A stretch of DNA of 64,000 bases from the NCBI GenBank assembly GCA_000092065.1, contig CP000587.1; one strand, 5' to 3'. Positions 29,752 through 51,590 of the stretch are shown here, in pieces (within the stretch, counting starts at the first letter, position 1; every line of letters begins with the position of its first letter). The notes beneath the pieces were generated by a model. It saw nothing but the letters and a program-made list of their open reading frames with translations, was not told the DNA's origin and made no database searches. This stretch comes from Ostreococcus lucimarinus (lineage: Eukaryota). The translations under genes and the position numbers were made by a program.

Positions 29752-30435
29752 ATGCGCGCGGCGACGACGACCCTCGCGCCCGCGCGCGCGACGACGCGCA
29801 GGACGCGAACGACGCGGACCGATGCGCGACGCGCGGTGACGCGCGCGGCGACGAAAGCGACGACGGACGTGACGACGACGACGCGGCGGGAACTCGCGGC
29901 GAAGACGCTCGCGGCGATGGCGCTCACGGCGACGCCGACGATCGGCGCGTTCGCGGGACCGGCGCACGCGCTGAGCGGGATGAACGCGGTGAAGGACACG
30001 CGCGAGGGGTACGAGTTCCTGTACCCGGTGGGATGGCAAGAGATTCAGGTGGACGGGCAGGCGGCGGTGTACAAGGATATCATCGAACCCCTGGAGAGCG
30101 TGGCGTTGAACGTGTACCCGACGCAACGGGAGAGCGTGAAGGACATCGGAACGGCGGATGAGGTGGCGAAGACGCTGGTCGGGAAGGCGCTCACCGCGCC
30201 GGGGGCGCAGGCGAAGGTGCTGGCGACGAGCGAACGCACGGATAAGGACGGACACCTGTATTACCAGTTTGAGTTTGTCACGAAGACGCAGAGCTACGAG
30301 AGACACGCGCTGACGGTGGTGACGGTGACGCAAGGAAAGTTCTACACGCTCACCACGGGCTCGAGCGAGAAGCGCTGGAAGAAGATGAAGGAACGCCTTC
30401 TCGCGACGGTTGGCTCGTTCAGCGTCTACTATTAA
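29752..30435 (+). CDS. PsbP-domain (PsbP-like) thylakoid lumen protein with Tat-type presequence
   Basis: The mature part GYEFLYPVGWQEIQVDG...YKDIIEPLESVALNVYP...YQFEF...KFYTLTTGSSEKRW is the PsbP fold. The presequence has TTRRELAAK followed by the hydrophobic stretch TLAAMALTATPTIGAFAGPAHA, a twin-arginine lumen-targeting type. Confidence 0.75.
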   Translation: MRAATTTLAPARATTRRTRTTRTDARRAVTRAATKATTDVTTTTRRELAAKTLAAMALTATPTIGAFAGPAHALSGMNAVKDTREGYEFLYPVGWQEIQVDGQAAVYKDIIEPLESVALNVYPTQRESVKDIGTADEVAKTLVGKALTAPGAQAKVLATSERTDKDGHLYYQFEFVTKTQSYERHALTVVTVTQGKFYTLTTGSSEKRWKKMKERLLATVGSFSVYY

Positions 30436-34834: not shown

Positions 34835-35752
34835 CTAGAGGGTCGCCTTGAGACTATCGCTCAGGCTTTCCACGTTCGTATCGTCGCTGTCTCCGCTATC
34901 GCTGCGCGTGCGTTGATTGCGCAATCGAACCTTGGTGCGTTCAGCGTTGATCTCGAATTTATCGCGATGCGAGTCGAAAAATTCCAGATACGTCTCCGGC
35001 ATCGTCACGGGCTTGCGACATCTGCCGCTCACGCCAGTCTTGCTTTTAATCGCCATCCACTCCCCATCTCCCACCTCCTTGAACAAAAATCCGAAGACCC
35101 TGTCCAGATACTCATCTCTCGCCGACCGGAACGCCGCACCGGTAAATTTAATCGCCGGCTGCGCTTGCTTGGCGTCCGCGCGGTTGCCAAAACTCGTCCC
35201 GCTTCTCGGATGAGGAAGCGAACCGGGCTTGAACGTCGCGCGATCACCGCGCGGAGGTCGCCCGGCGAACGCGCCGTTCCCTCCCCGAGCGCTCCCCGCG
35301 CTCGTGGCGTACGAATACACCGCCACGGGAGGTGAAGACGCAGACCGCGGCGACACGCTCTTGTCGCGTCCGTCTCCGTAACTGCTTCCGAGTTGACCGT
35401 CGCCAAAGCTCGGAGGCTTGAGCGCCGATTGCGGCGAAAGCGTGTACGACGGAGAGTCTTCGATCGATCGTTTTGATCCACTCGTCATCTCCCCCCCGCG
35501 CAAGTGCGGGGGCGTGTTCATCATGATATCGCTCGGCGAGGAAGTTTCCGGAACGAAGCGCTTCAGAGGCCCCGGCGAGCCCGCGCACTCGCGCACCACC
35601 TCCAAATCCGCCACCGTGATCCCCCGCGCCGACGGCGCCGCGCACAGCGCTTGCTCCATCGACGGCGCCTCCTCGAATAAATCATCGGGCAAATGACTCA
35701 CCAAATCATCATCGCGCCCCCTCGAAGGCGCGCTTCGACTCAAATACGCCAT
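34835..35752 (-). CDS. Hypothetical protein (Ser/Pro/Gly-rich N-half; conserved-looking C-terminal ~100 aa)
   Basis: ATG confirmed at 35752. The C-terminus KFTGAAFRSARDEYLDRVFGFLFKEVGDGEWMAIKSKTGVSGRCRKPVTMPETYLEFFDSHRDKFEI has protein-like composition. No domain recognised. Confidence 0.35.
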   Translation of the reverse strand: MAYLSRSAPSRGRDDDLVSHLPDDLFEEAPSMEQALCAAPSARGITVADLEVVRECAGSPGPLKRFVPETSSPSDIMMNTPPHLRGGEMTSGSKRSIEDSPSYTLSPQSALKPPSFGDGQLGSSYGDGRDKSVSPRSASSPPVAVYSYATSAGSARGGNGAFAGRPPRGDRATFKPGSLPHPRSGTSFGNRADAKQAQPAIKFTGAAFRSARDEYLDRVFGFLFKEVGDGEWMAIKSKTGVSGRCRKPVTMPETYLEFFDSHRDKFEINAERTKVRLRNQRTRSDSGDSDDTNVESLSDSLKATL

Positions 35753-35780
35753 CTCGCTCGCCTCGCGTCGCCCCTCGTCC

Positions 35781-36173
35781 TCACACCCAACGCCCCTCCC
35801 TCGCGTTCGCGTCCCCTACCTCCGCCTTCGCTTCGGCGCGTCGTTCAATCTCCACCGTCAGCGCGTAAATCTCTCCCTGATGCCTCGATATCGCCCTCGC
35901 GTTCTCTCGCAGCGCGTCCTCGTACGTCTCCTTATCCGCCCTCGTCGTCGCGTCGTCCGCCGCCGCCTCCTCCAGCGCCTCGCACGACCGCTCCAGGTGT
36001 TTCACCGCGTTCACCAACCTCGAGCGCTCGCGCGTCAGCGCCTCCGCGTCCCGCGTCTCCGTCGTCGTCGTCGTCGCGCCTCCGCGTCGCTTCGCCGTCG
36101 TCGTCGCGTCCGTTTCAAACCGCGCGTCGTCGTCGTCGTCGTCCGTCCCGAAGCGCGTCGTCGTCGCGCGCAT
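35781..36173 (-). CDS. Hypothetical small coiled-coil protein
   Basis: ATG confirmed at 36173. The heptad-like region is LTRERSRLVNAVKHLERSCEALEEAAADD...ETYEDALRENARAISRHQGEIYALTVEIERRAEA. It was chosen over the overlapping P/S/R-rich plus-strand N-terminal extension of the MED14 track ORF, which looks antisense. Confidence 0.3.
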   Translation of the reverse strand: MRATTTRFGTDDDDDDARFETDATTTAKRRGGATTTTTETRDAEALTRERSRLVNAVKHLERSCEALEEAAADDATTRADKETYEDALRENARAISRHQGEIYALTVEIERRAEAKAEVGDANAREGRWV

Positions 36174-36415
36174 CCACCGGCGCGATGCCGACGCGCGCCG
36201 TCCGTCGAGCGCGTCGCGCGAATCGCGCCGCGCGAATCGCGCCGCGCGTCGGCGTCGCGCGTCGAAGCGGCGTCGCGCGTCGCGCGAGGTGCCGACGCGA
36301 ATCCGTGTCCGTGTGGTGCGCCACGCGGGAGGGTTTTTGTTTGACCCGTAACAACGGATTGGGATCGCCGAATGCCGATCGACGCGCGACGCGGCCGCGC
36401 ACCGACGCGCGCGGG

Positions 36416-39310
36416 ATGGAGACGCTGCCGAAACGCGCGCCCGCGACGACGCTCGCGGACGTCGTCGAACGCGTCGCGCGCGCGTGCCACGTCGAGCTTC
36501 GGCAGCTCGTCGAGCGATGCGCGGGCGCGGACGCGCGCGCGCGCGCGGCGGAGCTCGCGCGGTACGCGCACCGCGCGCGGCAGCGACTCGTCAGGTGCGC
36601 GATCGTCGAGCGGTGGTCGCGGAAGAGCGCGAAGATCGCGACGGTGGCGACGAACGCGCACCTGACGCTGCGCGCGCACGAGGAGGCGTTCGCGAAGCTC
36701 GCGGATGGGCTGTTTCATTTGCACCAACAAATCGAGTGGGCCAAGGCGCCGGCGTGGGATCTGGCGGGGGCGCTGAACGTGCTGTGCGACGGGGACTACG
36801 AGCTGGGGAGGGAGATATCGGAGATCGGCGTCGGGCGAGTCGCGGCGACGGAGGAGACGGAGGAGACGGAGGAGACGCGCGAGCGGAGGTTGGACTTCGA
36901 ACGGAGATTCGAGGAAGAGATGACGGAGCGATTGGTGCGATCGAAGACGCACGGATGCGCGACGAGGGACGATCACTCGGAGTGGCCGAATGAAAAATTC
37001 AAGGTGTTCGCGATCGGGGGGGGGAAAGTCGAGGTGGGGGTCGAGGGAGAGTATCGCGCGACGCTCTCGCTCGGAGGACCCGTGGCGCCGAACGCGACGG
37101 AGCAACCGCGGTACGGAGGGTGGCGCGTAGAAACGATAGAGATGTTGGCGGGGGACGAGAAAGGGGCGAAGTTCGAGCTGAACAAAGCCGAGACGCGAAA
37201 GTTGGCGGACATGGCGTGCGCGAGCATGGTCGGGCTGCCTCCGTTTGGTCAAAAGCTCGCCGACGACGCGCCGCCGTTGGAGCCGTTACATCTCAAAGGT
37301 TTGCACGGCGTCGCGAGCGATGCGGTGCTGCTGAAATCCGCCGCCGCAATTCTCGCGCAGGCTGGAGCGCTGAAGGACGCCGCGGAGCGTGCGAACTCTG
37401 AGTCGCGCTGGTCTCGAAACGCCGTCAAGGTTGAAATCGTCAAGGGCGAAGCGGCGGGTATTTTAAAGGGCGTACGCGTGGCTTTTTGGCGTCAAAACGT
37501 CGCCAGCGCCGACGAGGCGGGAATGTTGGACGTTTCGTTCAACCCCGAGACCGCGGATTTGCGCGCCAAGGCGCGGGCGCCGGGTGAGGCTGAGTTTTTC
37601 GATTTGCCCGTCAATTACGCGCGCGTCGATTTGGAAGCCATCCTCGTCGAAGCCATCCGTATAGCGTCTAGTAAGAAATTGCACTCGGTCTCGACCGAGG
37701 TGAGCGGGGAAAAATCGTTCACGACTGTCGTGGAAGAGTCGATGACCGCGGAGGAGTGCGCGTGCTCAGAAGACGAAGACGCGTGGGGAACCGACGCTCG
37801 ACCCGCGATTCGTCTCGAGATTTCGAAATTCACGAACATATTCATCACCTGTCGAATTTCTGACGGTACTTTGATCCTGCACGGTGCGGGTGAGCTCGTA
37901 CCGTCCGCAACGGAGGCAGATCTTTCAAAGAGATTAGCTCTTGAAGGGCACGACGCCATCGTCAGCATCGTCGAAGAAGTCTCCGTCGCCGTCGAGCAGC
38001 AAGAGCTCAAGGGTTTGCTTCGCACGTCCGGGACGTCGGTGCATCCTGCGCCAAAAACCTTAGGCGGCGAACCGTGGAGTACTTCGGATGCAGTCCCGAG
38101 CGGCGTTGCGCCGACTGCCTTGGTACCCGTCGTGCCGAGCGACGGCGGCGTCTTCGTCGCGACTTGGATGGGAGCGACGCCGACTTTCGCCCTTGTCAGA
38201 GCGCATCGAGTTAACCCGGCGTCGAGATACATCGCGCATTCAGTCGAAAAGCTCAATCTCGGGGCGCGAAAAGGCTCAAAGGCTGATGTCGTCGTGAAAA
38301 TGATTGGTGAGGCGTGTCGCGACTTGAGCGTCGACGCGCAACGCTCAGCGTTGATGCGCGCCTTGAAAGAGCAGCGCGTCCCCTTCGTCGACATTCGGCC
38401 GACATCGAAAGGAACGAAAAAAGCCGCAAACACCGTGAGTTTTGAGATCGTAAACACTTCGCGTTGGGCGCAAAGTAAGTACAAACGTGCGATAAAGCAG
38501 AAATCTCCGCTCAAGGCGCACGTCACGCTACGAGGCATCGACGGCTTGTCGGCGAGCATCGGTGGCGAAACGCGCGCTTACGAGCACTCCGAGTTCATGA
38601 TACACGCCTTTCTAGCGGACGTCCGGCGTATCGCCGCGGCGCAAGGGTTTTTATCGGCGTTATCTGATAATGATTCCGGAGTAGATTTCGCCAAGCTCGG
38701 ATGCAAGTTGAGCCGCCAAGCCGCCGATGTGGTTTCAATTTCGTACAAAGACTCCATCGAATGTACCATCGAATGGCGCCATAGTGGGTATCTTGGTCCG
38801 GGTTTGTACGCCGACGGCGAACGACTCAGCTCGTCGGCCAAGCGCGCGCTCAGCGTCGCCGCGCGTGATGGCCGATGTGAGATTTTTGCGTGCGCGCTTC
38901 GCGCCGTCGAAGCGGCGGCGAGCCATTTTGCTCAACTCCACGGTGACTTCCAACTCACCTTTGGTGCACCGAGTGTTTTATCAATCGTGAGAATCATCGG
39001 TGTCAGCGCGATGCGGGTGTGTTCGATTGGATTCAGACTCGACGGTTCGGTCTCCTTCGTCGTCGGTCGAGGAGGAGACGGCGCTCACGACGACGGCTCC
39101 ACGAACGATGACGAGATGAACATCACGGACGACCACGAAGCGCTCATTCCCACGCGCCCCGAAGGCTTGACGCAGTATATCGACGAGATATCCGCCGCCT
39201 TGGAAGGACCACTGGGGTCGAAACCAAAGCACGGAGACGCCGTCGTCGCGAACGCGTCGTCGGCGTCGCCGGCGCTCGCGGCGCTCGCGAAATCAGTCGT
39301 GGCGAAGTGA
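36416..39310 (+). CDS. MED14: Mediator complex subunit 14 (MED14/Rgr1)-like protein
   Basis: ATG at 36416 (METLPKRAP). The N-terminal region RQRLVRCAIVERWSRKSAKIATVATNAHLTLRAHEEAFAKLADGLFHLHQQIEWAKAPAWDLAGALNVLCDGDYEL resembles MED14 RQLFVRLLALVKWANNAGKVEKCAMIS...[26 protein letters not shown]. The track ORF 5' extension (35693..36415) was rejected as low-complexity. Confidence 0.5.
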   Translation: METLPKRAPATTLADVVERVARACHVELRQLVERCAGADARARAAELARYAHRARQRLVRCAIVERWSRKSAKIATVATNAHLTLRAHEEAFAKLADGLFHLHQQIEWAKAPAWDLAGALNVLCDGDYELGREISEIGVGRVAATEETEETEETRERRLDFERRFEEEMTERLVRSKTHGCATRDDHSEWPNEKFKVFAIGGGKVEVGVEGEYRATLSLGGPVAPNATEQPRYGGWRVETIEMLAGDEKGAKFELNKAETRKLADMACASMVGLPPFGQKLADDAPPLEPLHLKGLHGVASDAVLLKSAAAILAQAGALKDAAERANSESRWSRNAVKVEIVKGEAAGILKGVRVAFWRQNVASADEAGMLDVSFNPETADLRAKARAPGEAEFFDLPVNYARVDLEAILVEAIRIASSKKLHSVSTEVSGEKSFTTVVEESMTAEECACSEDEDAWGTDARPAIRLEISKFTNIFITCRISDGTLILHGAGELVPSATEADLSKRLALEGHDAIVSIVEEVSVAVEQQELKGLLRTSGTSVHPAPKTLGGEPWSTSDAVPSGVAPTALVPVVPSDGGVFVATWMGATPTFALVRAHRVNPASRYIAHSVEKLNLGARKGSKADVVVKMIGEACRDLSVDAQRSALMRALKEQRVPFVDIRPTSKGTKKAANTVSFEIVNTSRWAQSKYKRAIKQKSPLKAHVTLRGIDGLSASIGGETRAYEHSEFMIHAFLADVRRIAAAQGFLSALSDNDSGVDFAKLGCKLSRQAADVVSISYKDSIECTIEWRHSGYLGPGLYADGERLSSSAKRALSVAARDGRCEIFACALRAVEAAASHFAQLHGDFQLTFGAPSVLSIVRIIGVSAMRVCSIGFRLDGSVSFVVGRGGDGAHDDGSTNDDEMNITDDHEALIPTRPEGLTQYIDEISAALEGPLGSKPKHGDAVVANASSASPALAALAKSVVAK

Positions 39311-39369
39311 AACTCCAGCGAAGTGAAACGGTAGGCGTGACAAAAAATAAACTAGTTATTGCATTTCAA

Positions 39370-39857
39370 TCAGTCGGTCGCAAACGTAAACTTGATTCCA
39401 GAATCGCCCACCGGCGCGTCGGCCTCCGCGCTCTTGTCCTTGCCGAACGACCGCTCGTACTCGCTTCGTTCCTTTCTCGAATCGTCTTCCGCGCACGAAT
39501 CGCTCGCGCACACGCACGACGCCCCGAGCACCTTCACGACCTTCAGCTCGTATCCCTCGCCGCACGCACCGCCGCCTTGCTTGAACAACGATTCCGCGCT
39601 CAGCGCCGGCGCGCTCTCGGCGTCTCGCTTCCTGTCCTCCTCCATCTGCCGCATCATCTCCGCGTACGCGTCGTTGTTCCCGCTCTTATTCAGCCCCGCG
39701 CTCGCGACGGGCGTCATCGTCAGCGCCATCGCCGCCGACGCCGCGAGCGCGACGCACGCGCGCGCCAACGCGCCGTCCTCCTCACCGCGTCGTCGCGTCG
39801 TCGTCGCGCGCATCGTCGTCGTCGCGCGCCTCGCGCGCGTCTTCGTCGTCCGCACCG

Positions 39858-39890
<33 letters not shown>

Positions 39891-39903
39891 ACGTCGTCGC
39901 CAT
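39370..39903 (-). CDS. Hypothetical small Cys-containing protein with poly-Thr N-terminus and signal/transit-like hydrophobic segment
   Basis: ATG confirmed. MATTSTTTTTTTTT is encoded by an (ACG)n repeat. Then comes ALARACVALAASAAMALTMTPVASA, then a C-terminal CGEGYELKVVKVLGASCVCASDSCAEDD. No homolog recognised. Confidence 0.3.
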
Positions 39904-40055
39904 CGCGCGCGCCGTCGCGTCGCGCTCTGTCGTCGCCCGCCGCGCGCGCGCGTCGTCCTTATCCGCTCGTCGCGATCGCGACGCACACGTCGACGCGTCG
40001 ACGCGCGACCGCTCGCGCGCGCCGACCGCGCGCGTCCCCGATCGCGTCGTCCGCG

Positions 40056-41216
40056 ATGGCGCGCGCGACGCCGGCGCCGGCGCCGGCGCCGGCGACGGCG
40101 CGCGCGCGCGCGGAGGCGCGCGGCGACGCCGGTCGGCGGTCGGTCGCGGCGCGCGCGCGACGCGCGCGGGCGCGCGCGCCGGTCGGCGCGGTGGTGGACG
40201 ACGCGACGACGCGCGCGCGCGGCGCGCGCGGCGTCGACGGCGCGCGGCGAACGCGAGACGCGCGCGACTATTGGTTTCCGGTGTGCTTCTCGGGGAATCT
40301 GCGAGATAAGGACGCGCTGGTGGCGTTTGATTTGTTCAACGTGCCGTGGGTGCTGTTTCGGGGGCGCGACGGCGAGGTGGGGTGCGTGAAGGATGAGTGC
40401 TGTCATCGCGCGTGCCCGCTGTCGCTCGGGAAGGTGGTGGACGGACGGGTGCAGTGCCCGTATCACGGGTGGGAGTACGAGACGAACGGCGAGTGCGCGA
40501 AAATGCCTTCGTGTAGTTTTTTGAAGAACGTCTTCGCGGACGAGCTCAGGGTGATCGAGAGGGATGGGATGATATTCGTTTGGGCCGGAGAAAGCGATCC
40601 CGCGGACTTTGTTGGACCGGAGGCGGCGTGCGAGTCTTGGGACGAGGACGTGTACGAAGCCAACGAACCGGGGATGTTCACGACGGGCGAGGGATTCGTG
40701 ACGATGGCGGAAGTCATCGCGGACGTGAAACTTGACAGCGATGTCGTGGTGGAACGGTTGTTAGACATCACCGAGCGCGCGCGGCGGGAACCGGTGTCGG
40801 TGAAGAATCGCGGTCGAGGCGCACTCTTTCCGGTGGACGGCACGCGGTTGATTTCAAAAGTCTTGCGGATCGGTTACGACGCGGTACCGCAGAGCGTGGT
40901 TTTCAAACCGTCGTGCGTGATCGCGAGCACGATCGCGCTGAGACCGCGCGTAGGGGGTGGAGATGGGACTTCGATGCAAGTAGAGCAGTTGCACGTGTGC
41001 TTGCCCGCCAAGCCGGGGCTCACGCGCGTCCTGTTCCGCATGGCTTTCGATTTCGTCCCGGAGGGTGCGCAAAACGCGGCGGGTGACGTGTGGAAGAACT
41101 TAGCAATGCAGGTCCTACAAGAAGAGCTCGAAGACGTGCGAAGCGCGGGGCTGAAATCGGAAACGACATCCATAGCGGTTGAATCGTTTCGCGTCTTCAA
41201 GAGAGGAGACAAGTAG
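40056..41216 (+). CDS. CAO: Chlorophyllide a oxygenase-like Rieske subunit (split CAO, Rieske [2Fe-2S] retained, mononuclear-iron motif absent)
   Basis: [82 protein letters not shown] aligns closely with plant CAO ([38 protein letters not shown]). CAO-like blocks downstream are [10 protein letters not shown] and [25 protein letters not shown]. The region corresponding to the E..HAPF.H mononuclear Fe site lacks His ([25 protein letters not shown]). The presequence is R/A-rich. Confidence 0.8.
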   Translation: [386 protein letters not shown]

Positions 41217-41268: not shown

Positions 41269-41843
41269 TCACGCCGTCTTCAACGCGATCCCGAGCGCGC
41301 GATCCCTCTTCGCGCCCATGCGCGCGCTCGCGCTCGCCAACGGCTTCGCCGCGTTTCGTCCGACGGTTTTCGTCCAAACGATGAACTGATACGACAACCA
41401 AAGTTTCCCCCCGAACGTGATGGGCTTGATGCATCCCCGGAAAAACAGCGACTCCGCCAACGACAGCGTCAATCTCTCCGCGTTCGCCGCTCGCAGCGCC
41501 GGCACGCGCGTCGTCGCTTTCGCCGTCTGCTTCGCCGCCGCCGCGAGCGTCTTCCGAAACAGCGGCGCCGCCTTCTCGGCCACCTTCGTCTTCGCGAGCG
41601 GCTTCAGCACCGTCCGCGACGGTTCGATCGCGTACGCCGCGATCCACGTCGACGCCGCGAACGCCACGGATATCACCTCGTGAAACCTGCGCGCGCGTCG
41701 TCGAGTCCGAGTCAGTCTTCGCGTCGTCTTCGCTTTATCCGCCTCCTTCGCGCGTCGCTCGCGCGCGTCACGCACACGAACGCCGGAACGACGTCCGTCG
41801 GGGTGAGTCCTTTATCGACGAAGTACTCGCGCGCGCGTCCCAT
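41269..41843 (-). CDS. Small membrane protein, possibly DUF1279/FAM210-like (mitochondrial); 2 exons, absent from ORF track as a complete gene
   Basis: The track ORF 41269..41775 starts with GTG and has no ATG. Exon 1 41776..41843 (ATG = cat 41841-43) encodes MGRAREYFVDKGLTPTDVVPAF. Intron 41687..41775 (89 nt) has donor GT|GTGCGT, branch AGACTGACTCG, acceptor CGCGCAG. Exon 2 41269..41686 continues in the ORF frame (V)FHEVISVAFAASTWIAAYAIEP...AESLFFRGCIKPITFGGKLWLSYQFIVW. The family call is weak. Confidence 0.4.
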
Positions 41844-41908: not shown

Positions 41909-42091
41909 ATGTCGACGGCGCGGTGCGCCCGCGCGCCGCGCGTCGCGCCCGCGCGCGCGCCGAGCGCGAGCGCGACGACGAAGCCGCGCGCTCGCGCGCG
42001 CGCGACGCGAGCGAGGGCGTTTTGGGATCGCTTCGGTGTTTCGAAGACGGATGACGTCCCGAGCGGTGAAAACGTCGACGCGGACGCGCGA

Positions 42092-42124
<33 letters not shown>

Positions 42125-43549
42125 CGCGCGGCGAAACCCACGGCAGAAGACTCGCTGAGCGCGCTGAGCGCGCTGCTCGGCGAGGACGAACGCGAGGCGA
42201 AAGCGGCGAGAGAGCTCGAGGAGGCGGACGCGCGGCGAGCCGAGGCGCAGGCGAGGGAACGCGAACGCAAGGAAGCCGGCGCGGCTCGACGACGCGAATT
42301 CGTCAAGGCAGACGCGGCGACGACGAGGATTCAAAGATTGCAGGCGGTGTTTTTAGACGTTCCGCTGGGGATGATGGATTTTTCGACGATGAAGGACAAG
42401 ACGCCGGGGGGCGAGGCGCTGGGGCCGGAACCGGAGTGGTTCAAGCTTCCCACGGAGGTGTTCGATAAGGTCACGGGCGAGCGGTTCGTGGTGGAGGAAG
42501 AGAGCGACAGTGGGCTGGAGTTGAAGCCCAAAGGCAGCGGCGAGAGCGAGGGAGACTCGGGCGAGATCGTGCGATTACCAGGAGAGTTTCAACTTCCCGT
42601 AATTCCGTACCCATTCGTGGCGACGCCTGGGACGTACGTGAGATTGAACTTGTTTGAGCCGCGTTGGTTGACGCTGTTCTCGAAGCTCATCCCGGGCGGT
42701 GACGAGAGCGCGACGGATAAAGCGACGGAATCACGACCGTCGAGCGAGGTGAAGACGGACGAGGACGGTTTCGGCGCGAGCACAGTTCGCCGACGCGTGT
42801 TGCGCGGAATCGATGGCAAGGCGAAAATCGATCTCAACGCTTTGCCAATCATCGAGGCGTACGAAACCGGCGCGCGCTCGTTCGACATCGTTCCCGGTTT
42901 CGGGCGATTGCCCGAGGACGAATTCGTCGACACGAACGCTTTCGGTGCGGTGTTTCGTGGGTTGGATGGGCAAATCGCGAGCGTGGGCACCACGATGGAG
43001 GTGCAAGCGCACGACGTCGTCGTCGACGGTCGTTTGTTGAGCGTGTGCGCCAAAGGAACGCGGCGTTTCAAGGTTTTAAGAGTGGCGCAGACCGAACCGT
43101 ACGTCATCGTCGACGCCGTGCCGATCGAAGACGACGACCAGTCTTCGGTCGTGACGCCAGACCAGGCGTCGGCGGAGGCGGTGAACGAGGTGTTCGATTT
43201 AATGAAAGTGGTCGACCCATATTACATGGAGGCGATCGGTTTAGAGGACGTCTCCAAGAGTGACGTGAAAGATATGACCGAGTTCGACTTAGCGAACGTC
43301 ATGTACTACACCCATCCGACGCTCGCGTTGAAGCTCTTGGCGTCGAAGGACTCCGCGCTGCGCAAGCGCGTCGTCCTCGCCTCGGCCAAGAGTTTCAAGC
43401 GCGCCATCGAGCTCGGGTTCACCCCTCGCAAGAGTCGACTATTATCGTCCTTCGTCAATTTGGCGTTATTATTCGGCGTCGGTTTCACCATTCTCGCCAT
43501 TAAGAACGCGCTCGAGGGCGACCCGTCCGGGTTGGATGATTTTTACTAG
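41909..43549 (+). CDS. LON N-terminal (substrate-binding) domain protein with C-terminal transmembrane helix
   Basis: The LON_substr_bdg signature is LPVIPYPFVATPGTYVRLNLFEPRWLTLFSKL, with downstream GTTMEVQAHDVV...GTRRFKVLRV. No AAA+ or protease domain is present. The C-terminal TM is LSSFVNLALLFGVGFTILAI. The N-terminus is presequence-like R/A-rich. Confidence 0.6.
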
Positions 43550-44539: not shown

Positions 44540-46282
44540 ATGGCGACGACGACGATGGTTGGGTGCGGTTTTAAGGCGGCGAACCGCCGGGGCGCGAGCT
44601 TCGCGCGTCGCGCGCGCGTCGGCGAGGCGCGCGTCGCGCGCGCGCGGTTCGCGACGCGACCGATGCGCGCGGCGGCGGTGGACTCGGGCGCGGGATTCGC
44701 GGAAGCGGTGCGTCGGCGAACGCGCGAACGCGACGAACGCGAGCGCGCGCGATTCGCGAAAACTGTGCGCGTCGAGCGCGCGTCGCGCGCGGCGCGGGGG
44801 GGGACGCGCGCGACGACGCGAGGCGCGAACGCGAGGCGGTGGGGGAACCACCGCGTCCCTAGGCGAAAGGATAGGATGGGTTTTGCGGCGCGACGCGCGG
44901 GCGAGCGAGGAGACGCGACGGAGGCGGTGACTGACGAACGCGCGGTGTTTTGGATGAAACAGGAAGGCACGGCGAAGGAGCGATCGTTCGATGCGTCGAT
45001 GCGCGTGCCGACGAGCATGGCGAGAATCGGGCGGCAGCTCGGCGGCGGCGGCGCGGCGACGCTGGAGAAGGCTGGGCTGAGCATGCAGCAACAGGCGCAG
45101 GTGTCGAGCCCGAAGCTCGCCGACGGCGGCGGTGGTGGGAATAACGGTGGTAAGATTAACAACGGTGGTGGTGGCGGTGACGGCGACGAAGGGGACGACG
45201 ATGATTACTTTGAGGAGGGGGACGACGACGACGGCGAGGAGGGATTTTTTAGCACGAGGGCGGCGATCGGAGAGACGTTTGACAGAAAGGCTATTCAGGC
45301 GGTTTTGTCTGAGTGGTTCAAGACCATGGAATCGCTTCCAGGTGGTATTCGCATGGCGGTGGAGATGGGCATCGTGTCCTCTCTCGCTCTCGTGCGTTTC
45401 ATGAGCGTCAACGTGCGCCCGAGCGTGGTGCGCGCCGTCTCGCGCGGAACGCCGCAAGCGTTTTCCCGCGCCTTTGTCGGTCGCCTCATGGCTGATCCCG
45501 CGTTCTTGTACAAACTCGCGTTCGAGCAAGTGGTGACGATCGGTGCGGCGACGATGTACGAAGTCGCCCATCGTGGCGAGCGTTTGAAGTCGGAGTGGGA
45601 CCTCGCGCTGAGCAACATCATGCAGTTGTCCCTCGCGAACGCCTTGACGGTTTGGTGCTGCACGCCGGTGCGATCCTTCGGGTCGTCCGCGACGAACGGT
45701 TTCCAAAAGTTCATGGCGACCATGCCGAACAACGCGTTCGACCGTGCTGGTCCTTTGCGCCAGTACACCAACGCGACTCGTGGGTTGAGCGTCGTCACCA
45801 AAGCCGCGGAATTATCCGCCGTGGGCGTGTTGACGGGCGGGGCGTTCTCCGCCATCAACACTGGGTTGTTGGCCTTGCACAAGAACAAGAAGGGCGAGCA
45901 ATGGGAACCGGCGATTCCGGTCCCGGATCTCAAGACTTCGGCTCTCGGCATGGGCGCCTTCCTCGGCATCTCGTGCAACTTGAGATACCAGCTCCTCGGC
46001 GGCGCCGATCGGTGGATGACGGAGCACCTCACGTCGTTGGCGTCCTCCGTGTCCGCCACCGCGTTAGGCCGCGTCATCAACAACCAGCTGGGTGAGCCCA
46101 CGCGATTGTTCGCGTTGGGTCTTCCCATGCACGCGTCGTTGGCGCAAACCGCCGGCTCAGCCATTCCTCAGTTGACCAAGAAGAAGGTGGTCAAGAAGCG
46201 AAGAAAGGTTGCGAAGAAGCGCGTCGCGGCGGCGGCGGCGACGACGACGGCGACGCCCGAAGTCCCGATGGCCACCGCTTAA
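44540..46282 (+). CDS. RETICULATA-related (DUF3411) plastid envelope protein
   Basis: The C-terminal half MADPAFLYKLAFEQVVTIGAATMYEVAHRGERLKSEWDLALSNIMQLSLANALTVWCCTPVRSFG...GLLALHKNKKG...GAFLGISCNLRYQLLGGADRWM is the RETICULATA/DUF3411 pattern. There is a long presequence, Gly/Asp low-complexity insert, and a Lys-rich tail. Confidence 0.65.
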   Translation: MATTTMVGCGFKAANRRGASFARRARVGEARVARARFATRPMRAAAVDSGAGFAEAVRRRTRERDERERARFAKTVRVERASRAARGGTRATTRGANARRWGNHRVPRRKDRMGFAARRAGERGDATEAVTDERAVFWMKQEGTAKERSFDASMRVPTSMARIGRQLGGGGAATLEKAGLSMQQQAQVSSPKLADGGGGGNNGGKINNGGGGGDGDEGDDDDYFEEGDDDDGEEGFFSTRAAIGETFDRKAIQAVLSEWFKTMESLPGGIRMAVEMGIVSSLALVRFMSVNVRPSVVRAVSRGTPQAFSRAFVGRLMADPAFLYKLAFEQVVTIGAATMYEVAHRGERLKSEWDLALSNIMQLSLANALTVWCCTPVRSFGSSATNGFQKFMATMPNNAFDRAGPLRQYTNATRGLSVVTKAAELSAVGVLTGGAFSAINTGLLALHKNKKGEQWEPAIPVPDLKTSALGMGAFLGISCNLRYQLLGGADRWMTEHLTSLASSVSATALGRVINNQLGEPTRLFALGLPMHASLAQTAGSAIPQLTKKKVVKKRRKVAKKRVAAAAATTTATPEVPMATA

Positions 46283-46459
46283 ACAGGATGGAAGAAACAA
46301 AACGAAATTGCTAGATACTCGCGCAGCGTTCGCGTCCGCATTCGGACTCGGACATAGTCAGAATCTTGTGTGTTGTAAAGAACCGTCAGAAACCTGGCTC
46401 GACGCCGCGTCGCGCCTCGCTCGCCCTCGTCACTCCGCGCCGCGCGTCCGCCGCGCGAC

Positions 46460-48437
46460 GTCGCGCGCGATGTCGGCCGCGTCACCATCGCGCGCGCTCG
46501 CGCGCGCGCGCGCGGCGAGCGCGTCCTCGACCGCGCCGTCGTCGTCGACGGAATCGCCGCCGGCGTCGCGACGACCTCGCGCGCGTCCGCGCCGCGCGCG
46601 CGCCGCGACGCTTCGCGCGGTGACGCCGCGCGACGCCGAAATCATGACCCGCGTGTGCGAGCTCGCGCGCGCGCGCGAGGGCATCGCGGCGCCGCACCCG
46701 CTGAGCGCGTGCGCGGTGACGCGAGGCGACGGCGACGTCGTCGTCGAGGCGACGCACGCGGGACAAGGGTCCACGCGGGCGGAAATCGCGTGCGCGGACG
46801 AGATGCGGCGACGGGGCGCGACGCTGAACTCGAGCGATCGAGGGACGGTGTACGTGAACCTGGAGCCGGCGCACGGGGAGGTGGCGGGGGAGACGCGGAG
46901 CGTGGAGGCGCTCGCGGCGACGGGGGCGACTCGCGCGGTGGTCGGGATGTTGCATCCGCTCCCAGGATTGCGAGGACGCGCGGTGCGAGCGCTGAGAGAG
47001 CGAGGGATAGAGGTGTGCGTGCTCGAGGGCGAGGCCGAGGGGTTCGAGGGCGAGGCGGCGCGAGCGTGTCGAGAGACGAACGAGGCGCTGTTGTATCGCG
47101 TCGCCACGGGTTTGCCGTTTAGCGTGTACAAGTACGCGATGACGCTCGATGGGAAGATTGCGACTGATACGGGACATTCGTCGTGGGTGACCGGTGCCGA
47201 GGCGCGCGAAATGGTGTTTCGCGAGCGGAAGCGTGCGGACGCTGTGGTCGTCGGCGGCGGAACGGTGCGGAAGGACAATCCGAGGCTGACGTGTCGCGAA
47301 GAGACTGGGTTCCAACCTGCTCGAGTCGTTCTCACTCGATCTCTCGACTTGCCCGAAGACGCAAAGCTGTGGAATGTCCGCGGTGTGGCGCCGACGATAG
47401 TGTGCACCACGAAGGGCGTGAAACCGGAATTCCAAAACGCGCTGCGCGCCAAGGGCGTCGAAGTGGTGGAATTCGATGAACTCACACCCCTCGCCGCGGC
47501 GCAGTACATGTTCAAGAGAGGATTTTTGAGATGCTTTTGGGAGTGCGGCGGTGGTCTCGCAGCGCCGGCGATGAAGAGCGGAGTGTTTCACGAGGTTCTA
47601 GCATTCATCGCGCCAAAGCTTGTTGGCGGCGGCGCGCTCGCGCCGACGCCTCTGGGCAACTTGGGCATAGAAGCCATGCACGACGCGTTGCCATTATCCG
47701 GCGTGCGTCTCGAAATATACGGGCGTGACATTCTCATTCGTGGCTACGTCCCGAACTCGCACAGCACGGGACGACTAAGCCAGCTCGCGAGCGCCGGATA
47801 TAGCGTTCGCGGGTTGGAGTTCAACGTCGGTGAGAGCTCGGACGACGATGAACGCACCGATGATGGATCACTCATTTCCGTCGAGCGAGCGGTAGCATCA
47901 CTCGTGAACGACGATGAAGTTTGCGATATGGATAATCTTCCACCGGTTAAATTTTACAAAGCCTGGGACGAGTATGGAGCGCTGAGCAACTTTTCCCCGT
48001 TTCCCGTGAGCGTCGACGGCGTGGAATGGCCCACGGTTGAACATTACTATCAGGCACAAAAGTTCGCCGGCGTGCACAACGACATCGCACGCGAGTCGTT
48101 TGAGAAAATCAAACTCGCAGAATCACCTGAGGCGGCAGCAAAAATCGGTCGAAGCGCTCAAGCCGCTCATCCCGAAAGCGTTCGAAAGGATTGGGACGAT
48201 GTCAAGGTTGACGTCATGCGACGAGCGCTGACGGAGAAGCTAGTAAGGTATGAAGGACCAAGGACGTTGCTCATGGAATCTGTTTGCACCGATGGTCGTG
48301 TGCGCGTCATCGAAGACTCCCCGGTTGATGGCGTATGGGGCGCCGGTCGAGACGGAACTGGCCAAAATTTACTGGGGGCGCTGCTCGTGAATATCAGAGA
48401 AGATCTCGTGAGCGGGCGTTTAGACGTTGAAAAATGA
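46460..48437 (+). CDS. PYRR: Riboflavin-pathway PyrR-type triple-domain protein: degenerate deaminase-like domain + pyrimidine reductase (RibD-C) + COG3236/YbiA-type N-glycosidase (DUF1768)
   Basis: The deaminase-like domain has HAGQ in place of HAE and EPAHGE in place of PCxxC, so the Zn ligands are lost, as in plant PyrR. The reductase segment is PFSVYKYAMTLDGKIATDTGHSSWVTGAEAR...VVVGGGTVRKDNPRLT. The C-terminal segment is KFYKAWDEYGALSNFSPFPVSVDGVEWPTVEHYYQAQKF. The track start at 46209 overlaps the preceding gene. I used the in-frame ATG at 46470. Reported start is 46460 (reasoning indicates 46470). Confidence 0.85.
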
Positions 48438-48471: not shown

Positions 48472-50202
48472 CTACGTTGAACTCAGCATGCTATGGATTT
48501 CGCGTAACAGAGCCTTGGCCGCGTGTTTCGCCGGTCCCGGCGCGTCCAAGAGGCGCACGCACGCGGCTTCGGCTTCTTCGAGTCGTCGCTCCTTCTTATA
48601 AAACTGAGACAAAAACTCCAACGCCTCGATCTTCTCGTTACTATCGGCGTCTAAGACCTCGGCGTCTAAGCGCTTGAGATTGAGGAGATAGTAATGCGCC
48701 GCCGCCTTTTCATTCTTCTCTCTGTGGAGAGTGGCAAGTTTGGATAGTGCGATGCCTTCGCGCTCGTTGTTCGCCACGGCGCGTTGATAGCATCGGATCG
48801 CGGACTGAAACAAACGGAGCTGGTCGGACTCGTAGCACTGACCCATCGCACACCACATTCGTGGATCCGACGGACGAAGTTTGACCGCTTGTTGGTAGTA
48901 GTAGAGCGCGTAATAAGGCATTTGTAAGATTTCGTACGTCTGTCCCAAGCCGTACCACGCGCGATAATCGCGCGGGTTGATGTCCACTGCGTGTCTGTAC
49001 GCGTCGATGGCCGCCGCCGGGTTTTTCATCTCCACGTACTCGTGTCCCATCAAAGTCCAGGCGCTCAAGTATCGCGGGTTGAGCTTCAGCGCGCGCTTGA
49101 AGTACACCACAGCCTTGGCGTGCATCGATTTCAGCGAGTAGTAATTGCCGACGACGCAACAAGTCTCGGGGGTGTACTTATCGGTGGCGACTAAGTGATG
49201 CGCCAAGTGCGAGAGCTCGGCGAACGATTCCTTCACGTACAGGACGTTTGAATAATTATCCATGCCATCGATACGATACGGATCCAAATCTCGAATGTCC
49301 TTGTAAATTTCCTGCGCCTCATCGAATTCGCGCAAGTTGTAGTGCGCCTCCGCCATGTGTCCCAGCAACAGCTTACTCTGCGGGAATTCTTTCCCGAGCG
49401 ACACGAAGGTGTCCAAGCTTTCTTTGTTCTTTTGCATTTCGAGTTGAAAGACGCCGATGAACCAGCGATAGACCCAATGCTCGCGCGGAAGATCGAGCGC
49501 CTGCTCTTCCTCCTCGCTCGTCAACATCGGAATCAACGCCTGCCACGCGCTCCAATTGAGCGGGTACTTCCGACACGCCTCCGCGAGCAAATCTTTCGCC
49601 TGCGTCGGCTGTCCACTCTCCCGACAGACGATGCCGTGAAGATAGGTCAAAAACCCATCCTTCGCTCCCGAATAATCCTGCGCGCGAAGCCACTCGCTCA
49701 ACGACTCGAGCTCGGCGTTCGTCCCCGCGTTCGGCTCTGGCGCTTGTTTCCGCGCCCCGATCGACGGCGTCTGCGACGAATCCACCGCACCCGCCCCCCC
49801 ATCGACGTCCCCCCCCCCCACCGCGCTCGCCTGCCCCTTACTCTTCTCCCCCGCTAAAAACGTCGCGTACTCTCGCAAAAACGTCTGCAACGGCGCGTTC
49901 GCCTCTCGCAGCGCGTGCGCGCACCGCCTGTACTCCCCCAGATCAAAATACGCCTTCGCGAGCGAGTACGCGTCGTCCATCATCGCCTCGTCCTCGTCCT
50001 CGTCCTCGTCCATCGCCGCGCTCGTCGCCGTCGCGCCGTCCGCGTCCGCGTCCGCGCGCGCCGTCTCGAGTCCACACAGCTGTTCGCACGCCCACGCCGC
50101 CGCGCGCGTCAGCCCGCGCGCGCGACACCTCGCGATCGCGTCCCTGAGTTCGCGCGCGCGTCCCGCGTCGCCGCTCGCGTCGCCGCGGCGTCCCATCGCC
50201 AT
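48472..50202 (-). CDS. APC8: Anaphase-promoting complex subunit 8 (APC8/CDC23), TPR protein
   Basis: DYRAWYGLGQTYEILQMPYYALYYYQQAVKLRPSDPRMWCAMGQCYE and LNPRYLSAWTLMGHEYVEMKNPAAAIDAYRHAVDINP are near-diagnostic CDC23 TPR blocks. The N-terminal ANAPC8 segment is ELRDAIARCRARGLTRAAAWACEQL. Start ATG at 50202 (MAMGRRG). An alternative ATG lies at 50370 (the track start at 50373 is GTG). Confidence 0.85.
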   Translation of the reverse strand: MAMGRRGDASGDAGRARELRDAIARCRARGLTRAAAWACEQLCGLETARADADADGATATSAAMDEDEDEDEAMMDDAYSLAKAYFDLGEYRRCAHALREANAPLQTFLREYATFLAGEKSKGQASAVGGGDVDGGAGAVDSSQTPSIGARKQAPEPNAGTNAELESLSEWLRAQDYSGAKDGFLTYLHGIVCRESGQPTQAKDLLAEACRKYPLNWSAWQALIPMLTSEEEEQALDLPREHWVYRWFIGVFQLEMQKNKESLDTFVSLGKEFPQSKLLLGHMAEAHYNLREFDEAQEIYKDIRDLDPYRIDGMDNYSNVLYVKESFAELSHLAHHLVATDKYTPETCCVVGNYYSLKSMHAKAVVYFKRALKLNPRYLSAWTLMGHEYVEMKNPAAAIDAYRHAVDINPRDYRAWYGLGQTYEILQMPYYALYYYQQAVKLRPSDPRMWCAMGQCYESDQLRLFQSAIRCYQRAVANNEREGIALSKLATLHREKNEKAAAHYYLLNLKRLDAEVLDADSNEKIEALEFLSQFYKKERRLEEAEAACVRLLDAPGPAKHAAKALLREIHSMLSST

Positions 50203-50513
50203 CGCGTCGCCGACCGACGGCGCGCGCGCGTTTGAATCGCGGCGCCGCGCGGGGCGACCGACCGCGCGGGCGTCCGATTTTTTAACGTCTTCGCGCCGCG
50301 CGGCGTCGTACACCGAGACGCGCGAACGCCATCGGCGTCCGCGCGTCCGCGCGTCCGAGCGATCCGCCATCACTTTTTATCGACGACGCGCGTGCGCGAT
50401 CATGGGCTTAAATGCGCGTTGAATGCGGACGTCGATCGCGACCGTCGATCGCGGTGGTCGATCGCGCGATCTCGCGCGCGCGATCGGCATTCCTGCACAC
50501 GCACATTTCTGCA

Positions 50514-51590
50514 ATGTCTGCCCTTCTCGCTTCCTCCTTCGTCGGCCGCGTCGCCGCCTTCAAGGCGACCAAGATCCAAGTGCGTATTTTTTCGAGCGCG
50601 CGCGCGACGCGCGGACGCGCGGCGCGGCGCGGAGGCGTCGCGCGACGCGCGCGAACGCGGGGCGGGCGCGGATGCGTATCGTATCTCGCGGGCGCGCGCG
50701 TGGGCGCGCGTGGGCGCGCGCGGGCGCGCGGACGGGCGCGGGGGGGGGGAGAAACGAGCGAGTGGGAATGTTTCGCGTCGTTCGCGGGCGCGGCGGGCGC
50801 GGCGGGCGCGGCGCGCGCGCGTGGGGGGGTGGATACGCGCGCGCGGTGGATGCGCGGATACGATACGGTTTTCGGGGAGATCTTTCCGGGGGCGACCGAC
50901 CGACCGATTGGATGACCGAGAGACTGACGACTATGATTTTTCGCTCGATCGCAGGCCAAGTCTGTCTCCACGACCGTCAAGGCTGACATCTACCCGGAAT
51001 TCGGTACCTACCCGGGCGGTGGCGAATCCCCGATCATCCCGTTCGGCGATGAAAAGAACGCCGAGCGCGAAGTGATCCACGGCCGCTGGGCGATGCTCGG
51101 CGTCACCGGCGCGTGGGCCGCCGAAAACGGCACCGGCATCCCGTGGTTCACCGCGGGTACCTTGTGCACCCCGGATGACTGCACCGCCGTCGCGGACAAG
51201 TTCCCGGGCGCCGTCGCCCCGCTCGCGCCGGAAGGCTCTGGCTACCCGTCCTTCTGGAACGTTCTCATCATCGAGATCGTTCTCGTCGGCGCCGCGGAAG
51301 CGTACCGTACCGGTATCTCCGACTCTCCGTTCGATGATGGCCTCACCGTCGGTGACGTCAACCCGGGTGGACGCTTCGACCCGCTCGGCCTCGCCGAGTC
51401 TGGCGACCTTGAAGAACTCAAGATCAAGGAGCTCAAGCACTGCCGCTTGTCCATGTTCGCGTGGTTGGGCTGCATCTTCCAAGCGCTCGCCACCCAAGAA
51501 GGCCCGATCGCCAACTGGCAATCCCACGTTGCGGACCCGGTTCACTCCAACGTCCTCACCAACGCGGCCAAGGGCTTCGGCTTCTACTAA
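50514..51590 (+). CDS. LHCP: Prasinophyte-type light-harvesting chlorophyll a/b-binding protein (LHCP), 2 exons
   Basis: Exon 1 50514..50579 encodes MSALLASSFVGRVAAFKATKIQ. Intron 50580..50954 has GTGCGTA ... GAGAGACTGACGA ... ATCGCAG. Exon 2 50955..51590 encodes AKSVSTTVKADIYPEFGTYPGGGESPIIPFGDEKNAEREVIHGRWAMLGVTGAWAAE...ELKIKELKHCRLSMFAWLG...NVLTNAAKGFGFY, the Mamiellales-specific Lhcp sequence class. There is an in-frame stop inside the intron. Confidence 0.9.
50580..50954 (+). other. LHCP intron (375 nt) with GC-rich tandem repeats and flanking 11-bp inverted repeat
   Basis: GTGCGTA donor. Internal repeats are (GCGCGCGTGG)-like x4 at 50688..50740, G9 at 50739..50747 and (GGGCGCGGC)x3 at 50784..50810. 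Inverted repeat CGTATCGTATC (50673..50683) pairs with GATACGATACG (50854..50864). Branch GAGAGACTGACGA at 50914..50926. Acceptor CAG at 50952..50954. Confidence 0.8.

Follow-up and report, generated by a model that had tools for sequence, protein, structure and literature searches.

A gene of Ostreococcus lucimarinus that very probably encodes the Rieske subunit of a two-gene chlorophyllide a oxygenase

Introduction

A chlorophyllide a oxygenase (CAO) encoded by two genes is already known: it was reported from Micromonas in 2013 and assayed in vitro in 2022, and the very gene described here was tabulated in a 2025 preprint. According to the account of Kunugi et al. (2013) given in that preprint, active CAO in Micromonas required both gene products (bioRxiv 10.1101/2025.02.10.637544). 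Purified MpCAO formed chlorophyllide b in vitro when supplied with NADPH and VanB, a non-native reductase (Liu et al. 2022, PMC9615114). In the trimer ring of Rieske oxygenases the cluster of one subunit adjoins the iron of its neighbour (bioRxiv 10.1101/2025.02.10.637544), and a split enzyme works because the electrons of Rieske oxygenases flow between neighbouring subunits. For the heteromeric CAO, a heterodimer has been proposed as the oligomeric state, and so has a "trimer of dimers" (including in PMC9615114). The preprint reports a heterodimeric CAO in 7/7 Mamiellophyceae examined, and for O. lucimarinus its supplement lists e_gwEuk.7.272.1 as the Rieske domain (chromosome 7) and gwEuk.12.214.1 as the Fe-binding domain (chromosome 12) (bioRxiv 10.1101/2025.02.10.637544).

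We analysed a stretch of 64,000 nucleotides from contig CP000587.1 of O. lucimarinus (hereafter the window). GC content across the window is 50-67%, and its genes are densely packed and mostly of a single exon, features that suit the genus Ostreococcus. An earlier interpretation made from the letters of the window (the sequence-only reading) had proposed that one of these genes encodes a Rieske-only CAO homologue, one half of a CAO split into two polypeptides as reported for Micromonas. The literature agrees on the two-polypeptide CAO of Micromonas and also catalogues one for O. lucimarinus (bioRxiv 10.1101/2025.02.10.637544). What is added here is modest, namely that the Rieske subunit is predicted to be a full two-domain protomer under constraint, that the pair looks like the product of duplication with complementary loss, and that both halves are poorly annotated in public records.

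Results

The features of the gene and of its downstream neighbours are collected in Table 1. The encoded protein matches XP_001418699.1 (UniRef100_A4S086) from O. lucimarinus CCE9901 exactly over its full length; that entry is labelled "predicted protein" by NCBI and "Rieske domain-containing protein" by UniRef. The label "chlorophyllide a oxygenase" is carried by other members of its 90% cluster, where it was assigned by JGI. Arg-rich ORFs that overlap the gene in other frames (39307..40389, 39359..40309 and 39720..40466) were dismissed as high-GC artefacts.

Table 1. Features of the CAO Rieske-subunit gene and of the genes up to LHCP, in window coordinates.
Feature	Position	Strand	Details
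Rieske-subunit gene of heteromeric chlorophyllide a oxygenase (very probable)	40056..41216	+	complete, single exon; ATG-to-stop ORF, 386 aa plus stop
N-terminal ~70 residues, Ala/Arg-rich	40056..40265	+	presumed chloroplast transit peptide
Rieske [2Fe-2S] domain, residues 73-156	40272..40523	+	PF00355 E=6e-23; pLDDT 94-98
Cluster-binding block C115-C-H117 ... C134-PY-H137	40398..40466	+	regular expression and alignment; four ligands intact
C-terminal catalytic-type domain, residues ~205-386	40668..41213	+	Rieske-oxygenase catalytic fold (predicted), iron site inactive, tail missing
Degenerate iron motif E233-RLLD237-IT-E240-RARR-E245	40752..40790	+	counterpart of ENLLDLAHAPFTH; Glu in place of both His
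Third (carboxylate) ligand region, residues E357-L-E-D360	41124..41135	+	ungapped versus gapped alignments
LON-substrate-binding-domain gene	41909-43549		between CAO and LHCP genes
RETICULATA-like gene	44540-46282		between CAO and LHCP genes
RibD_C/NADAR gene	within 46209-48437		between CAO and LHCP genes
ANAPC8	48472-50373	minus	between CAO and LHCP genes
LHCP gene	50514..51590		exon 1 50514-50579 (MSALLASSFVGRVAAFKATKIQ); intron 50580-50954; exon 2 50955-51590; PF00504 E=1e-24

Ahead of the Rieske domain lie just ~70 residues of low complexity, and residues 4-63 have a pLDDT below 50 in the AlphaFold2 model. Judging from its richness in alanine and arginine, this N-terminus may serve as a chloroplast transit peptide. 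The regulatory A-domain and its degron are absent from the protein in alignments with plant and algal CAOs, whose long N-terminal regions find no counterpart in it. The preprint agrees in describing the heteromeric CAO as lacking an N-terminal A-domain (bioRxiv 10.1101/2025.02.10.637544).

The Rieske centre is intact. Residues C115, H117, C134 and H137 satisfy the pattern C-x-H-x(15-20)-C-x-x-H, and this C/H/C/H set is invariant in 106/106 Rieske-subunit sequences and in 86/86 full-length CAOs or bacterial relatives. Over the 23-residue Rieske block the sole change with respect to several green-algal CAOs (e.g. P0042, P0047) is C116, where theirs is alanine. The sequence-only reading had described the Rieske block as nearly that of CAO and the CAO-like C-terminal blocks as kept, and both were recovered in the translation: residues 115-141 and GECAKMPS (145-152) on the Rieske side, QLHVCLP (311-317) and a further block (324-333) towards the C-terminus. 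A Rieske HMM check likewise matched PF00355, and NCBIfam gave generic matches alone, confined to the Rieske region.

The mononuclear-iron site is lost. The segment expected to carry it had been said to hold no histidine, and careful alignment with full-length CAOs bears this out: E240 and E245 stand where the CAO motif ENLLDLAHAPFTH has its iron-binding histidines, and the pattern E-x3-D-x2-H-x4-H is broken, with E233 and D237 retained. The entire protein contains three histidines (H117, H137 and H313). The aspartate of the CAO segment GEDLRLV pairs with E357 in ungapped alignment or, across a gap of 3 residues in the large alignment, with the well-conserved D360. Whichever of the two is its match, a 2-His-1-carboxylate triad is impossible. 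Moreover, the alignments show no equivalent of the QQDRM...YDKLG.YRRWR tail at the C-terminus of CAOs. Since the iron motif is broken, the protein alone is not a complete CAO, and its pattern is the one expected of a Rieske subunit.

Motif classification and alignment were extended to 355 sequences with a minimum length of 300 aa. Every one of the 86 full-length CAOs and bacterial relatives kept the Rieske C/H/C/H and both iron-motif histidines. The Rieske-only sequences (n = 106) kept C/H/C/H throughout and never had histidine at the iron-motif positions; the first position is occupied by E (48), Q (34) or G (21), with Y, K and A as singletons, and the second by E (44), K (36) or a gap (22), with singletons V, L, S and A. 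The iron-only, Rieske-negative sequences (n = 163) showed the complementary pattern, with the iron-motif residues E, D, H and H kept in 163/163 and a gap at each Rieske ligand column in 130-161 of them.

Database searches returned relatives in three tiers. The closest were Rieske-only proteins of 65-99% identity, metagenome sequences that we take as Ostreococcus clades. These were followed by Rieske-only proteins of ~40-48% identity, including P0026, whose cluster holds a "Rieske family" protein of Bathycoccus prasinos, and then by full-length CAOs of 33-42% identity (E ~1e-43 to 1e-58), the best of the named ones being CAOs of Nephroselmis, Tetraselmis and land plants (about 1e-48 to 1e-56). 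Named CAOs as a whole scored between 1e-45 and 1e-57. Bacterial oxygenases trailed at E=1e-8 to 1e-18. None of the 76 matches was named PAO proper, TIC55 or PTC52, and the enzyme names among them at E<1e-40 were CAO or a CAO-type plant protein with a degron-like TIMLLH segment. A neighbour-joining tree (206 shared columns, 93 sequences, bacterial outgroup, computed without bootstraps) placed the protein in a single Rieske-positive/Fe-negative clade inside the CAO radiation. Relatives of this type come from Ostreococcus, Bathycoccus (P0133) and several further lineages. A long branch leads to the clade, and its basal position may be a long-branch artefact. Taken together, the names of the matches and the position within the CAO clade support, indirectly, CAO rather than PAO, TIC55 or PTC52 as the nearest relatives, as the sequence-only reading had supposed.

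Within the 64-kb window, tblastn with five CAOs or relatives revealed no second CAO-like locus, all other matches having E>0.4. Partner-type sequences were picked by motif, followed by cluster look-ups and a second search seeded with the Micromonas pusilla protein. The resulting iron-only paralogue family includes XP_003060874 of M. pusilla CCMP1545 ("chlorophyll a oxygenase"), XP_003082289.2 of O. tauri (annotated "Pheophorbide a oxygenase"), proteins of O. mediterraneus and Bathycoccus, and an abundant marine form of 407 aa (P0489). In Pfam, the iron-only proteins matched PaO and VanA_C, and Rieske was unmatched. The iron subunits of Ostreococcus and Bathycoccus have the cluster-binding loops deleted and the flanking strands WYPV.F.., ..WV.. 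and DGL.MVWPG kept, and they retain ENLLDLAHAPFTH, GEDLRLV and YRRWRN. In JGI assembly 3300050343, one contig (759 kb) shows 99.3-99.7% identity to the window across 21 kb and encodes a one-residue variant (R55S) of the window protein, and a separate one (540 kb) carries P0489, with the iron motif intact and the Rieske loops deleted. P0489 is placed through this assembly, and its tie to CCE9901 itself rests on the table of the preprint.

P0489 and the window protein share 25% identity over 328 residues. Gene fission was rejected as the origin of the split, and duplication with complementary loss is preferred, since each paralogue can still be aligned over the two domains. The two-gene CAO thus looks like the outcome of a duplication after which each copy lost one centre. 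A CAO divided over two loci, as earlier proposed, therefore holds in that the Rieske centre is kept here and the iron partner lies on a separate contig of a near-identical assembly, but not in the sense of one gene cut in two.

The C-terminal half of the protein gave little signal in Pfam: PaO (PF08417) at residues 283-339 stayed below threshold (19.6 bits against a cut-off of 27), and VanA_C was undetectable. An AlphaFold2 model built from a 58-sequence alignment (mean pLDDT 76.5, pTM 0.74, with low confidence mainly in the N-terminal 63 residues and two loops) consists of the Rieske domain followed by a beta-sheet/helix domain. Foldseek matched this model, over ~340-380 aligned columns and with E-values between 1e-14 and 6e-19, to the complete protomers of dicamba monooxygenase, GxtA/SxtT, NdmA and KshA. 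On this model the protein is predicted to be a complete two-domain Rieske-oxygenase protomer with its iron site disabled. The term Rieske-only is thus apt for the metal content and misleading for the architecture, as the whole fold of the catalytic domain appears to be kept.

The gene was compared with L010, an orthologue of 72% identity that belongs to a different Ostreococcus clade. In this comparison dS is saturated (1.4-2.0) and the dN/dS ratios are rough: the mature part gave 0.08, with 0.125 in the Rieske domain and 0.055 in residues 205-386, and the N-terminal 70 residues gave 0.44. dN itself was 0.114 in the C-terminal domain versus 0.171 in the Rieske domain. Within Ostreococcus the C-terminal domains are 84-85% identical and the Rieske domains 73-82%; between genera the order is reversed (38-43% and 63-64%, respectively). 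As far as such rough ratios tell, the iron-less domain is under strong purifying selection and is not drifting.

Lastly, the sequence-only reading had drawn attention to a prasinophyte LHCP gene ~9 kb away. The gene is real and starts 9,298 bp downstream of the CAO stop codon; its intron is 375 nt long, GC-rich and bounded by GT..AG. However, its proximity lends no support to a split CAO, with at least 4 unrelated genes in between (Table 1). The small flanking genes had no Pfam match even at E<=1. The block from PsbP to LHCP is syntenic throughout O. lucimarinus-like assemblies, and LHCP exon 1 occupies the same place in another Ostreococcus clade. Neither Bathycoccus nor the P0034 lineage showed an LHC gene within 10 kb of its CAO Rieske gene. 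A functional CAO-LHCP cluster was rejected on the strength of the intervening genes and of this missing linkage; in a genome so rich in genes, such closeness is ordinary synteny.

Discussion

The best explanation of these data, and one in which we place high confidence, is that the gene product is the Rieske ([2Fe-2S]) subunit of a two-gene heteromeric chlorophyllide a oxygenase of O. lucimarinus. The targeting of the protein to plastids, the stoichiometry of the complex and the activity of the pair in Ostreococcus are inferred, and the following scheme is a proposal. The protein would be imported into the chloroplast, as its Ala/Arg-rich N-terminus suggests, and would assemble there with the paralogue from another chromosome, which is without the Rieske cluster loops and has the ENLLDLAHAPFTH / GEDL iron site and the YRRWR tail. 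A pair of paralogues of which each kept one centre could still form a working interface. An electron donor, presumably ferredoxin in vivo, would reduce the [2Fe-2S] cluster of the window protein, and the electron would then cross between the subunits to reach the partner's Fe(II). There, the iron would activate O2 and convert the C7 methyl group of chlorophyllide a to the formyl group of chlorophyllide b in two oxidation steps. Productive interfaces would be those leading from a Rieske subunit to an iron subunit only.

Could the protein instead be a decaying, functionless CAO paralogue, a pseudogene in the making? It has lost both iron histidines and the C-terminal YDKLG.YRRWR tail, VanA_C is undetectable and PaO falls below threshold, all of which would fit decay. 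Yet the ORF is intact, Rieske-positive/Fe-negative relatives occur in Ostreococcus, Bathycoccus (P0133) and further lineages, the Rieske ligands are invariant (106/106) at a dN/dS of ~0.06-0.13, and the Micromonas counterpart is described in the preprint as needed for chlorophyll b synthesis (bioRxiv 10.1101/2025.02.10.637544). We therefore find decay scarcely credible. It is also very improbable that the protein belongs to the PAO, TIC55 or PTC52 lineage or is a Rieske electron donor to a non-CAO enzyme. The sole C-terminal Pfam signal is indeed PaO, which is common to CAO, PAO and TIC55, and the orthologous partner in O. tauri is annotated "Pheophorbide a oxygenase"; however, all enzyme-specific names at E<1e-40 among the 76 matches are CAO-type, the neighbour-joining tree puts the protein inside the CAO clade, and the complementary Fe-only paralogue bears the exact CAO motif ENLLDLAHAPFTH.

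A further possibility concerns the iron-less domain, which may have gained a function of its own beside electron donation, such as binding of chlorophyllide or an LHC apoprotein, or a regulation that replaces the A-domain, possibly through a carboxylate site formed by E240, E245 and either E357 or D360. The domain is constrained at least as much as the Rieske domain (dN 0.114 versus 0.171, identity within Ostreococcus 84-85% versus 73-82%), E233, D237 and one acidic residue close to the third-ligand position have been kept, and the A-domain is absent, all of which speak for such a gain. Nevertheless, we think it unlikely, though far from negligible. A conserved new metal site is hard to square with the residues in place of the histidines, which vary across genera (E/Q/G at one position, E/K/gap at the other). 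Between genera it is the C-terminal domain, at 38-43% identity, that has diverged more quickly than the Rieske domain, at 63-64%, and a pure scaffold role would account for the constraint too. The iron-less C-terminal domain is thus most likely a structural scaffold that docks the subunit into the oligomer. That it is more than a scaffold, and controls chlorophyll b output by binding chlorophyllide, LHC apoprotein or a metal at its carboxylate-rich site, strikes us as quite improbable. If true, a ligand bound at this domain could provide control over chlorophyll b in algae without the CAO degron domain.

Taking the protein as the Rieske subunit of a CAO, the pair would offer a textbook-style example of a duplicated gene whose two copies have each lost a different metal centre. 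There is also a practical side to its annotation: the window gene is uninformatively labelled, and the "Pheophorbide a oxygenase" label of the O. tauri partner could mislead the interpretation of transcriptomes. Moreover, the Ostreococcus pair is compact and intron-free, and the Rieske site of its Fe subunit is cleanly deleted, which could suit it to structural work on the assembly of the heteromer.

Comparison with known systems

One group of systems compared comprises the alpha3-type bacterial oxygenases of solved structure (DdmC 3GOB/3GKE, GxtA/SxtT, NdmA and KshA). The predicted model shares their two-domain protomer fold, with target-normalised TM-scores of 0.5-0.6, but these enzymes are homo-oligomers with both metal sites on each chain, and their sequence identity to the window protein is 13-21%. 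The Foldseek rmsd against them is high (8-11 A), which suggests that the model sets its two domains at another angle to each other than the crystal structures do, or that their placement is unreliable.

Single-chain CAOs (Nephroselmis P0061, Chlorokybus P0045, land-plant P0053 and P0056, for example) occur in plants, in most green algae and in prochlorophytes. Their Rieske domains are 55-57% identical to that of the window protein, with an almost identical cluster block, and they share with it the blocks HQLHVCLP..G.TR.L.RM..DF and VW..LA.QVL.E. They differ in bearing ENLLDLAHAPFTH, GEDLRLV and the YDKLG.YRRWR tail, all three of which the window protein lacks. The long N-terminal region of land-plant CAOs and of several aligned algal CAOs is likewise absent from it.

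The two-gene CAO of M. pusilla (Kunugi et al. 2013, J Biol Chem 288:19330; Liu et al. 2022, PMC9615114) is organised alike. One of its polypeptides carries the Rieske motif and the other the mononuclear-iron motif, and the N-terminal regulatory domain is absent, as in the present case. The host here is Ostreococcus, a member of the Bathycoccaceae, rather than Micromonas, and no Micromonas-named sequence occurs among the Rieske-only relatives (40-46% identity) that share the clade of the window protein. The Fe subunits can be compared directly, XP_003060874 of M. pusilla and the Ostreococcus-type P0489 being 58% identical. They differ at the Rieske loops, which are deleted outright in the Ostreococcus Fe subunit, whereas that of M. 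pusilla keeps a divergent, ligand-free stretch.

Genomic neighbourhood of the CAO Rieske gene

We examined the genes surrounding the chlorophyllide a oxygenase (CAO) Rieske gene, which encodes the Rieske subunit of a two-gene CAO (see table). Two of them recur beside it in all three lineages compared, namely Ostreococcus, Bathycoccus and the lineage represented by the database sequence P0034. In each, the small gene directly downstream is no more than ~2 kb away from CAO, and the gene encoding a LON-substrate-binding domain is also found nearby; the other neighbours differ. As both genes remain close to CAO in three lineages, this arrangement looks like residual microsynteny. On the upstream side, 152 bp separate the start codons of the CAO gene and a divergent gene for a small cysteine-containing protein of 177 aa, with the motifs GLNK.GN.DAYAEMM.QME ... 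GGACG.GYE ... C.C. Conserved counterparts occupy the equivalent position in a second Ostreococcus clade, with 66% identity, and in Bathycoccus, with 45% (E=4e-27). Neither the 177-aa protein nor the product of the small downstream gene gave a family match in Pfam.

Positions of features in the neighbourhood of the CAO Rieske gene
Feature	Position	Strand	Details
PsbP gene (photosystem II oxygen-evolving complex)	29752-30435	+	PF01789, E=1e-47
Med14 gene	35693-39310		
Arg-rich/Ala-rich ORFs	39307-40466		360, 316 and 248 aa
177-aa gene	39370-39903	-	divergent from CAO gene
CAO Rieske gene	40056-41216	+	386 aa
C116 codon	40401-40403	+	in CAO Rieske gene
Small gene	41269-41667	-	motif RLT..LAESL..R..IKPITFGGKLW..Y.F
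LON-substrate-binding-domain gene	41909-43549		
LHC gene	50514-51590	+	one intron
LHC intron	50580-50954	+	375 nt, after codon 22

The neighbourhood also contains photosynthesis genes. One had been labelled a prasinophyte-type Lhcp in the sequence-only reading; a PF00504 match on the same strand as CAO upholds its assignment as an LHC gene, whilst the narrower label is that reading's own. Its intron is very GC-rich and packed with short GGGCGCGCG-like repeats. As exon 2 lacks an in-frame start codon, mechanical ORF listing recovers only a truncated LHC ORF of 172 aa starting at 51072. The second photosynthesis gene, encoding PsbP, is situated ~10 kb upstream of CAO and is separated from it, as the LHC gene is, by unrelated genes, Med14 among them.

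In alternative frames and on the opposite strand, long Arg-rich and Ala-rich ORFs overlap the CAO gene in its 5′ region. Rather than genes, these seem to be by-products of high GC content and GC-rich repeats.

Within the CAO Rieske gene itself, the first Rieske ligand pair reads C-C-H in the O. lucimarinus-like clade, compared with C-A-H in all other CAO-family sequences examined. The extra cysteine, C116, adjoins the ligand cysteine.

Subunit naming and annotation

The abstract of Kunugi 2013 is said to assign the Rieske and iron parts to MpCAO1 and MpCAO2 in the opposite way to a more recent preprint. In the latter, the iron motif is on MpCAO1 and the Rieske cluster on MpCAO2 (bioRxiv 10.1101/2025.02.10.637544). 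These names may therefore be inconsistent between publications, and we prefer the terms Rieske subunit and Fe subunit.

The O. tauri orthologue of the Fe subunit (P0511, XP_003082289.2) carries the annotation "Pheophorbide a oxygenase". In a transcriptome study, ostta07g02450 is named "chlorophyllide a oxygenase", and ostta12g01390, under the name "pheophorbide a oxygenase", is discussed among the genes for chlorophyll breakdown (PMC4855317). If ostta12g01390 corresponds to XP_003082289.2, this gene actually encodes the other half of CAO, and the chlorophyll-breakdown reading would need revision.

Other possible CAO splits

Four iron-only CAO sequences that lack the Rieske part (database sequences P0401, P0402, P0406 and P0372) are nested in the neighbour-joining tree within clades of ordinary full-length CAOs. 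They could be truncated gene models. They could also represent independent CAO splits in other green lineages, such splits having been described in Caulerpa, Chloropicon and Bigelowiella (bioRxiv 10.1101/2025.02.10.637544).
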